DNA of 4,193 bases from a virus (taxonomy: Duplodnaviria; Heunggongvirae; Uroviricota; Caudoviricetes). Every line of letters begins with the position of its first letter. Positions within the stretch are counted from its first letter, which is position 1. This document shows, one piece after another, positions 455 through 1,170 of the stretch. The stretch spans positions 1 to 4,193 of the IMG/VR virus record IMGVR_UViG_2700989509_000012; one strand, 5' to 3'. The position numbers and the translations under genes were made by a program. The notes beneath the pieces are model-generated. The model saw nothing but the letters and a program-made list of their open reading frames with translations, made no database searches and had not been told where the DNA came from.

Positions 455-679
455 TCAACACACTGGCTGTAATGCAGCGGATACCATGCGGCATTTAGCG
501 GCATTCATCGTACACTCCACGGTTAGCTCTTCATTCGTGGCATTCACCCGAAAGGTCCGGGAGTGTAATTGCGTACATTTACCACTGAACGAACCTTCAA
601 CAAGAACACGACCACGCTGCAAAATACGGAACGGAATTGTTCCCTGAAAAGGTTCTACGGTTATCCGTAATTTCTTCAT
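455..679 (-). CDS. hypothetical protein, 74 aa, translationally coupled to Rz
   Basis: ATG 679..677 overlaps the Rz stop TGA 678..676 (ATGA). SD GGAGGA (complement of 688-683) lies inside the last Rz codons. Product [74 protein letters not shown]; no family recognised. Confidence 0.5.
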
Positions 680-1170
680 GTATCCTCCGGATAATAAAAA
701 GCCTGCTTAGTACACTGAGTGCGGATATAGTCCTGTGCCCCTTCCACCTGCTTCTGCATTGTCATCAGCCGTTCTCTGAGGATGAAATAATCCCGTTCAG
801 CGGTGTCTGCCAGTCGGGGGCCGGTTGCATTATCCACGCCGGAGGTGCCGGTGGCTTCACGCACGGTACCGGAGCAGGTGGCGTTGATCCGCAGGCGCTT
901 ACGACCAGCGGCAACATCAGCACGCAGAGTTTCATTTTCAGCTCTCGCATCGGCTAATTCCCTCGAGTATTTTGCATCGAGCGCAGCAACATCGCGCTGG
1001 CGCACCTGCATATCAGTAATGGTTGCGTTTGCCAGCTCCAGCTCTCTGGCTTTTTTATCGCGCTGCTCTTTGTAGGTTATGGCGTTATCACGGTAATGAT
1101 TCAGCCCCAGACTAAGCGCACCACAGGCCACCAGCAGGGCAATGATGACCACGCACAGTACGCGGTTCAT
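676..1170 (-). CDS. Rz: i-spanin Rz (inner-membrane spanin subunit), 164 aa
   Basis: From ATG 1170: [68 protein letters not shown]...[35 protein letters not shown]... aligns along its length with lambda Rz as recalled (N-terminal TMD, coiled-coil periplasmic domain). Track ORF start at 1194 is a TTG extension. About 10 residues longer than lambda Rz at the C-terminus. Confidence 0.9.
765..950 (-). CDS. Rz1: o-spanin Rz1 (outer-membrane lipoprotein), 61 aa, embedded in the +1 frame of Rz
   Basis: [61 protein letters not shown]: lipobox VVSAC, Pro-rich mature part, and lambda Rz1-like motifs [24 protein letters not shown]. Lies entirely within Rz in another frame, the classic embedded architecture. 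SD GAGGGA upstream of ATG 950. Confidence 0.88.

Follow-up and report, generated by a model that had tools for sequence, protein, structure and literature searches.

A 74-amino-acid (aa) open reading frame (ORF) that starts within the last codons of the i-spanin gene Rz is a genuine, conserved protein-coding gene, and it constitutes an optional accessory module between the lysis cassette and the DNA-packaging genes of Escherichia coli prophages. We analysed it in the 4,193-nucleotide (nt) stretch that spans positions 1 to 4,193 of IMG/VR record IMGVR_UViG_2700989509_000012 (hereafter, the window). It represents the lysis region, with genes on the minus strand, of an E. coli prophage of lambdoid, Stx-phage-like type, and shares 99.7% identity with the chromosome of an O103:H2 Shiga toxin-producing E. 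coli (STEC) and 97.5% with the Stx2a phage Stx2_95. An original prediction, made from the sequence alone, had drawn attention to the overlap of the ORF with Rz and to the ribosome-binding site (RBS) encoded by an Rz extension, and had read both as a strong signature of translational coupling. Overlap and extension turn out to be allele-specific.

Conservation of the ORF is most evident from a set of 100 loci, collected by protein similarity and comprising 23 distinct nucleotide sequences of the ORF. All 100 carry it uninterrupted from the same ATG, a figure that is biased towards intact copies because the loci were retrieved through the protein. Divergent copies (72-87% nucleotide identity) have dN/dS ratios of 0.2-0.5 with a significant synonymous excess (Fisher p 5e-4 to 8e-6 in three of four divergent pairs and 0.012 in the fourth), and the length difference in one lineage is exactly five codons. 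In a prophage identical to the window over 300-760 (locus L003), the NCBI annotation pipeline PGAP places a coding sequence (CDS), WP_032313457.1 ('hypothetical protein'), at the identical position with the same 4-nt overlap with Rz, and the profile phrog_2571 matches residues 1-73 of the product at profile positions 100-172 (E = 1.3e-27, 97.7 bits). The original prediction had preferred this minus-strand ORF to a plus-strand ORF at 438-647, and the preference is borne out: the plus-strand frame contains in-frame stops in seven of nine other lineages, including the two commonest alleles, and had zero family matches in Pfam, PHROG and NCBIfam searches. An RNA element in place of a gene was also considered and rejected, as no Rfam family was found in the region and its folds are no more stable than those of shuffled sequences. 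As a separate observation, the copy in E. coli O55:H7 CB9615 (L094 4001-4225) differs from its closest relatives by 16-18 nonsynonymous and 2-4 synonymous changes (dN/dS about 1.5-2.6), which suggests relaxed or diversifying selection in that lineage.

The junction of this allele reads, on the minus strand, ...CAG TGT ACT AAG CAG GCT TTT TAT TAT CCG GAG GAT ACA TGA AGA AA. The Rz stop and the ORF start share an ATGA that can be read directly, and the Rz codons P-E-D, close to its end, contain a GGAGGA Shine-Dalgarno (SD) sequence whose GGAGG core lies 4 nt from the ATG (Table 1). Only one of the 139 ATG triplets on both strands of the window has a GGAGG or AGGAG 5-mer at that spacing, and it is that of the 74-aa ORF. 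Counted from its ATG, Rz is 164 aa long, against 153 aa in lambda. Rz ends with ...NEQCR* in lambda, 933W and DLP12, while the protein here is 10 residues longer beyond the common QC, and the match to the Pfam Rz model stops short of this extension. On the overlap, the RBS and the roughly 10 extra residues, the original prediction was accurate.

Comparison of the junction among the 98 loci with enough flanking sequence reveals how this arrangement may have arisen. An extended Rz with an ATGA overlap is present in 56; in 37, Rz has a lambda-like length and ends in ...QC(I/M)(K/N) TAG, 22-23 nt upstream of the ORF ATG; and in five (L089-L093) no Rz adjoins the ORF on its upstream side. Short Rz is found in Salmonella as well as in several divergent lineages of the E. 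coli ORF, and two different Rz types show it; given this distribution and its lambda-type length, it is the ancestral state. The 22-23-nt spacer of the short alleles is the same sequence that codes for ...FYYPED(T/V/I) in the extended ones, and almost every junction type, intergenic ones included, has a GGAG core at this position (GGGG in the Salmonella copy). Because the short-Rz alleles hold the same SD-bearing sequence untranslated, the Rz 'extension' is, judging from the aligned alleles, an RBS-bearing spacer absorbed by read-through after loss of the TAG; it is no Rz adaptation. Where the stop used to be, the extended alleles have CAG, CTG or CCG (Q, L or P), which looks like the pattern expected of a T-to-C stop loss followed by free drift at an unconstrained residue. 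Evolution of the Rz tail as a carrier for the RBS is thus not supported, given the same SD in the untranslated spacer of TAG-ending alleles.

Whether translation of the ORF depends on Rz is a separate question, on which the five displaced copies (L089-L093) are the most informative. There (at 3559-4000 in L089) an intact Rz lies 443 nt upstream, the ORF has retained its SD along with some 45 nt of a relic Rz 3' end, and no ORF or translated gene ends beside its start. Because no ORF ends there, translation in these loci cannot rely on coupling, and because the relic is retained, the exchange boundary of the module must lie inside the Rz end. The mRNA fold around the ORF start is no more stable than shuffles (z = -0.9), with no unusually stable structure to occlude it. 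The ATGA geometry makes termination-reinitiation coupling to Rz plausible in this allele, with no sign that it is required. On the minus strand, a scan for consensus sequences only found no sigma-70-like site upstream of the ORF and no intrinsic-terminator-like site downstream, the sole terminator-like match lying within the ORF itself. The ORF would therefore be made when the lysis proteins are, from the late or lysis transcription unit. The predicted coupling thus survives as something the overlap permits, while its requirement is unsupported by L089-L093. The prediction that the protein is made together with the spanins likewise holds as far as a shared transcription unit is concerned; a specific link to the spanins does not, as relatives are found upstream of the holin and in an early-left operon, and a phage with the same flanks, CP-1639, lacks the module.

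CP-1639 (AJ304858) also defines the boundaries of the module. At L002 2939-2957 it has 19 unrelated nt in place of window 440-712, between flanks that are 96-98% identical, and its Rz ends ...QCLN*. Among 50,697 phage records, 26 encode the ORF and 425 share the Rz region; H-19B is one of the 26, its deposited sequence ending inside the ORF. In complete E. coli genomes the ORF region is present in 1855 of 5426, with a median of two copies per genome, and it adjoins three unrelated packaging modules (DUF1441, Nu1 and Terminase_2 with HNH). The element therefore shows one property of a moron, presence or absence between conserved flanks (CP-1639; 26 versus 425 records). No promoter and terminator of its own, as would serve expression from a repressed prophage, were found in the consensus scan, which is weak evidence on this point. 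Translated (tblastn) and profile searches found no relative downstream of Rz in lambda, 933W or DLP12; YbcW of DLP12 was rejected as a relative, as the family profile found no match anywhere in the DLP12 region. A scan of genome contigs, with one genome per species, yielded no confirmed relatives, and these representatives apparently lack the module.

The product is 8.3 kDa with an isoelectric point (pI) of 9.8, its N-terminal half having a pI of 10.9, and its cysteines are residues 35, 56, 63 and 74, in agreement with the earlier description of a protein that is basic at its N terminus with four Cys. It lacks a hydrophobic segment (the 19-residue Kyte-Doolittle mean peaks at 0.76), and a search for a membrane segment, a signal-anchor-release or signal sequence, a lipobox, a muralytic domain or any Pfam domain found none. 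Pfam (E <= 0.01), NCBIfam and PADLOC searches gave no match, and a PDB sequence profile search gave only noise (E = 0.55). The AlphaFold2 model is all-beta with seven strands (mean predicted local distance difference test score, pLDDT, 89.2; predicted template modelling score, pTM, 0.73), and its structure matches are generic and weak, with nothing specific. The 74-aa protein is thus predicted to be a small, soluble, all-beta protein, a beta-sandwich, without catalytic motif, membrane segment or export signal. C35 is invariant and C56 nearly so among close relatives only, and no Cys column is conserved in the alignment of the wider family. Because no Cys is conserved across the family, the four Cys are not a metal site; a Cys-based metal-binding or zinc-ribbon small protein was rejected for want of a conserved Cys/His ligand set. 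With no Pfam match, no hydrophobic N terminus and no similarity to the bor-bearing regions downstream of Rz, the protein is indeed not Bor-like, as had been stated.

The family extends well beyond this locus. A profile search of 1.8 billion representative proteins returned 43 relatives, among them 71-81-aa proteins with 24-40% identity from Yersinia, Xenorhabdus and Salmonella as well as several fusion proteins, and the phrog_2571 profile is also matched by the remote relatives P0056, P0070, P0064, P0065 and P0053. Their positions vary: P0053 and P0084 lie between Q and the holin, P0060 in an early-left region near a repressor, a kinase, ParDE and Erf, and P0065 downstream of Rz, after a DUF4406 gene. 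P0056 and P0064 have an Acb2/Tad1-hairpin gene immediately downstream, just before Nu1. Other neighbours of relatives are an N6/N4 methyltransferase, toxin-antitoxin pairs and DUF4406, all typical accessory genes. P0065 (280 aa) is modelled with a helical N terminus, a central beta domain and an alpha/beta C terminus; because confidence in this model is low (pLDDT 56), we infer nothing further from it.

Several observations on these relatives stand apart from the present gene. An Acb2_Tad1_hairpin (PF24729) gene lies directly downstream of remote relatives in three loci (L101 5314-5598, L102 3316-3600 and L106 863-1147), and just before the terminase small subunit gene where this was identified (Nu1 in L101 and L102). 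The PF24729 neighbours mark the Rz-to-terminase interval as an accessory or anti-defence slot. In P0053 (181 aa; L104 5001-5546) an N-terminal domain of the 74-aa ORF family replaces the DUF1327 core, and the C-terminal 99 residues share 73% identity with the tail of a DUF1327 protein from Salmonella (168 aa), a domain swap. Homology between the two interchanged domains was considered and rejected (hhalign probability 0.3%). P0002 (125 aa, on a contig of 1477 nt) has an N-terminal DUF1737 (PF08410) segment fused in frame to a full copy of the 74-aa protein, and may represent another loss of an upstream stop in a different context.

Taken together, we favour, with moderate confidence, an account in which the gene is an accessory of the late transcript, has its own SD and encodes a small, soluble binding protein of beta-sandwich fold, probably separate from the lysis apparatus. 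The gene would lack a promoter and share the Q-dependent late transcript of S, R and Rz/Rz1, its translation starting from the conserved SD. In this allele a TAG-to-CAG change would have removed the Rz stop, so that Rz reads through the 22-23-nt spacer and ends in the ATGA; ribosomes terminating there could add to translation of the ORF, as a secondary contribution not needed for expression. Late in infection the product would bind some cytoplasmic factor of the host or of a competitor, for instance as an anti-defence or host-takeover accessory, and would probably act outside the holin-endolysin-spanin machinery. Several points weigh against this account. The promoter and terminator scan was a crude consensus search. 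Close relatives sit almost always right after Rz with a conserved spacer length, which is compatible with functional coupling to spanin synthesis. The count of intact copies is skewed by the way they were retrieved, and truncated or frameshifted variants are present in the protein collection. Finally, the anti-defence idea draws only on gene neighbourhood, and this copy is late, whereas most known anti-defence genes are expressed early.

The nearly constant position beside Rz in close relatives could also mean that the protein is a lysis-associated factor, its synthesis obligatorily coupled to Rz and thereby in fixed proportion with the spanins, that modulates lysis timing or spanin/holin activity from the cytoplasmic side. 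Besides the ATGA in more than half of the loci, the Rz stop of the others is close enough, at 22-23 nt, for reinitiating ribosomes; displaced copies retain an Rz relic next to the ORF; and P0053 is fused to a DUF1327-protein tail, from a family located between holin and endolysin. However, the functional domains of Rz and Rz1 are periplasmic, as established spanin topology has it, whereas the 74-aa protein is predicted to be soluble and cytoplasmic. The module is missing from CP-1639 and from most phages with the same Rz type, distant relatives are found away from lysis genes, and the ORF has a conserved SD of its own, including in copies without an upstream partner. This reading seems quite unlikely. 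A role in the virion or in packaging, as an Ig- or jelly-roll-like decoration, tail protein or terminase helper at the start of the morphogenesis block, is very improbable. The ORF does lie just upstream of the terminase small subunit gene, and the N-terminal part of the fusion protein P0064 has a Phage_Tail_Tip match (E = 0.0017), but this match is below the curated Pfam cut-off, the structural matches are generic and weak, the gene is optional among closely related phages, and it neighbours three unrelated terminase/head modules, with other copies far from any of them.

A specific anti-defence protein, that is, a sponge or immune inhibitor analogous to the Acb2/Tad1-type small proteins of the same interval, is an unlikely alternative. 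It would suit the hairpin genes that immediately follow P0056 and P0064, the DUF4406, methyltransferase and toxin-antitoxin genes nearby, and a gene that is small, fast-evolving and patchy, that occupies variable positions in accessory slots and that has, in the O55:H7 lineage, the nonsynonymous excess described above. On the other hand, Pfam, PHROGs function labels, structure searches and PADLOC gave no likeness to known anti-defence families, literature searches gave nothing, a late gene would be an unusual place for this kind of function, and the sole evidence is guilt by association. A bolder proposal, to which we give little credence at present, is that the phrog_2571 core domain defines a new class of small beta-sandwich effector confined to Enterobacterales prophages, made at the end of the late operon and neutralizing either a competing phage or an immune or stress pathway of the host. 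If so, Rz-overlapping alleles would tie effector dosage to spanin synthesis, and the P0053 swap would make the phrog_2571 domain and DUF1327 interchangeable targeting modules on a common tail.

Table 1. Features of the window, in the order in which the minus strand is read
Feature	Positions	Strand	Remarks
DUF1378	3643-3822	-	first in minus-strand order
DUF826	3330-3602	-	
P21-type holin S	3038-3253	-	
329-aa DUF1327 protein	2044-3033	-	between holin S and endolysin R
Lysozyme R	1468-2001	-	
45-aa hydrophobic ORF	1172-1309	-	phrog_6632
Rz (i-spanin), 164 aa	676-1170	-	PF03245, E = 9e-50; PGAP 'lysis protein'
Rz1 (o-spanin lipoprotein)	765-950	-	+1 frame inside Rz; PF06085, E = 1.7e-21
Mobile module	440-712	-	last 12 Rz codons with stop, SD leader, ORF, 15 nt past ORF stop
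Rz C-terminal extension QAFYYPEDT	679-705	-	CAG 703-705 at the place of the Rz stop TAG in other alleles
Shine-Dalgarno GGAGGA	683-688	-	within Rz codons P-E-D; GGAGG core 4 nt from ATG
ATGA overlap	676-679	-	Rz stop TGA 676-678, ORF start ATG 677-679
74-aa ORF	455-679	-	ATG 677-679, stop TGA 455-457; phrog_2571 member, coding gene

The surroundings of the gene offer further observations. Just past window position 1, a copy that is identical over this end has the DUF1441 gene for the terminase small subunit. Between it and the 74-aa ORF is a G+C-rich stretch (about 180-230), overlapped by a plus-strand CDS at window 27-299 for a 90-aa hypothetical protein, which PGAP calls in the identical prophage (L003 4228-4500); this may be a candidate gene or part of the packaging (cos) region. 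The 329-aa ORF of the lysis cassette combines a DUF1327/YdfR N-terminal domain with a long C-terminal tail (phrog_1085). L003 lacks it, the lysozyme gene there directly following the holin gene, and other relatives have only the 114-aa YdfR form in its place. The 45-aa hydrophobic ORF has a GTG start and an AAGGAG SD and stops 1 nt ahead of the Rz ATG; it may encode a small membrane protein of the lysis cassette. At the far end, window 3880-3956 on the plus strand, between a nanS-like esterase gene and DUF1378, has a weak Rfam match to Esr41, a small RNA of enterohaemorrhagic E. coli (29.5 bits, far short of the gathering score of 102; E = 0.01), ending in a GC stem with a T run after it.

The 74-aa ORF is not new as an annotation: roughly one in three complete E. 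coli genomes already carries it under the label 'hypothetical protein', and it falls within an existing PHROG family. Literature searches found no paper mentioning the accessions, the PHROG or the protein's peptide strings, and the main text of a preprint on an accessory-gene screen (10.1101/2023.04.06.535777) makes no mention of spanins, holins, endolysins or the lysis cassette. What is added here is the proof of coding, the dismissal of its antisense competitor, the origin of the Rz tail in a lost stop codon, the boundaries of the module, and the wider family with its contexts. The gene is very common, often present in several prophages of one genome, and is found in Stx-converting phages and the classical phage H-19B, yet it is unnamed and lacks both a Pfam family and any literature. 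As a real, selected and (by prediction) soluble protein, it is a cheap target for knockout and over-expression in STEC prophage biology. The locus is also a clean, small example of how a seemingly 'designed' overlap and C-terminal extension can come from the loss of a single stop codon, and it indicates that an i-spanin tolerates 9-10 extra residues past its conserved C-terminal Cys. Our understanding of lysis is unchanged by it; the architecture is commonplace and the finding an ordinary one.

Among known systems, phrog_2571, whose function is unassigned, together with WP_032313457.1 and WP_000736383.1 forms the direct sequence family of the 74-aa protein. The profile has 291 positions and is built around 280-aa proteins such as P0065, so the 74-aa protein corresponds to the central beta domain (100-172) only. 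Acb2/Tad1-type proteins are likewise small, soluble and optional, occupy the same late accessory interval and are direct neighbours of remote relatives; the 74-aa protein has no PF24729 match and no structural similarity to that family, its own fold being a predicted all-beta sandwich. The DUF1327/YdfR proteins are also small proteins of the lysis region, located between holin and endolysin, with no profile-profile homology to the domain described here.

The closest positional counterparts are bor of lambda and borD of DLP12 and 933W. These occupy the same slot right after Rz, are optional and mosaic, and have an exchange boundary in the last Rz codons. Bor is an outer-membrane lipoprotein expressed in the lysogen from its own promoter. 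Its gene lies on the opposite strand, with a hairpin directly after Rz, whereas the 74-aa ORF is co-oriented with Rz, has no promoter- or terminator-like site, signal peptide or lipobox, and shares no sequence similarity with bor. In its geometry the junction resembles ATGA-coupled pairs such as trpB-trpA, with a four-base overlap and an SD inside the end of the upstream gene. Unlike in those pairs, the overlap here is polymorphic and probably stems from loss of the upstream stop, and the SD is equally conserved where it is intergenic.
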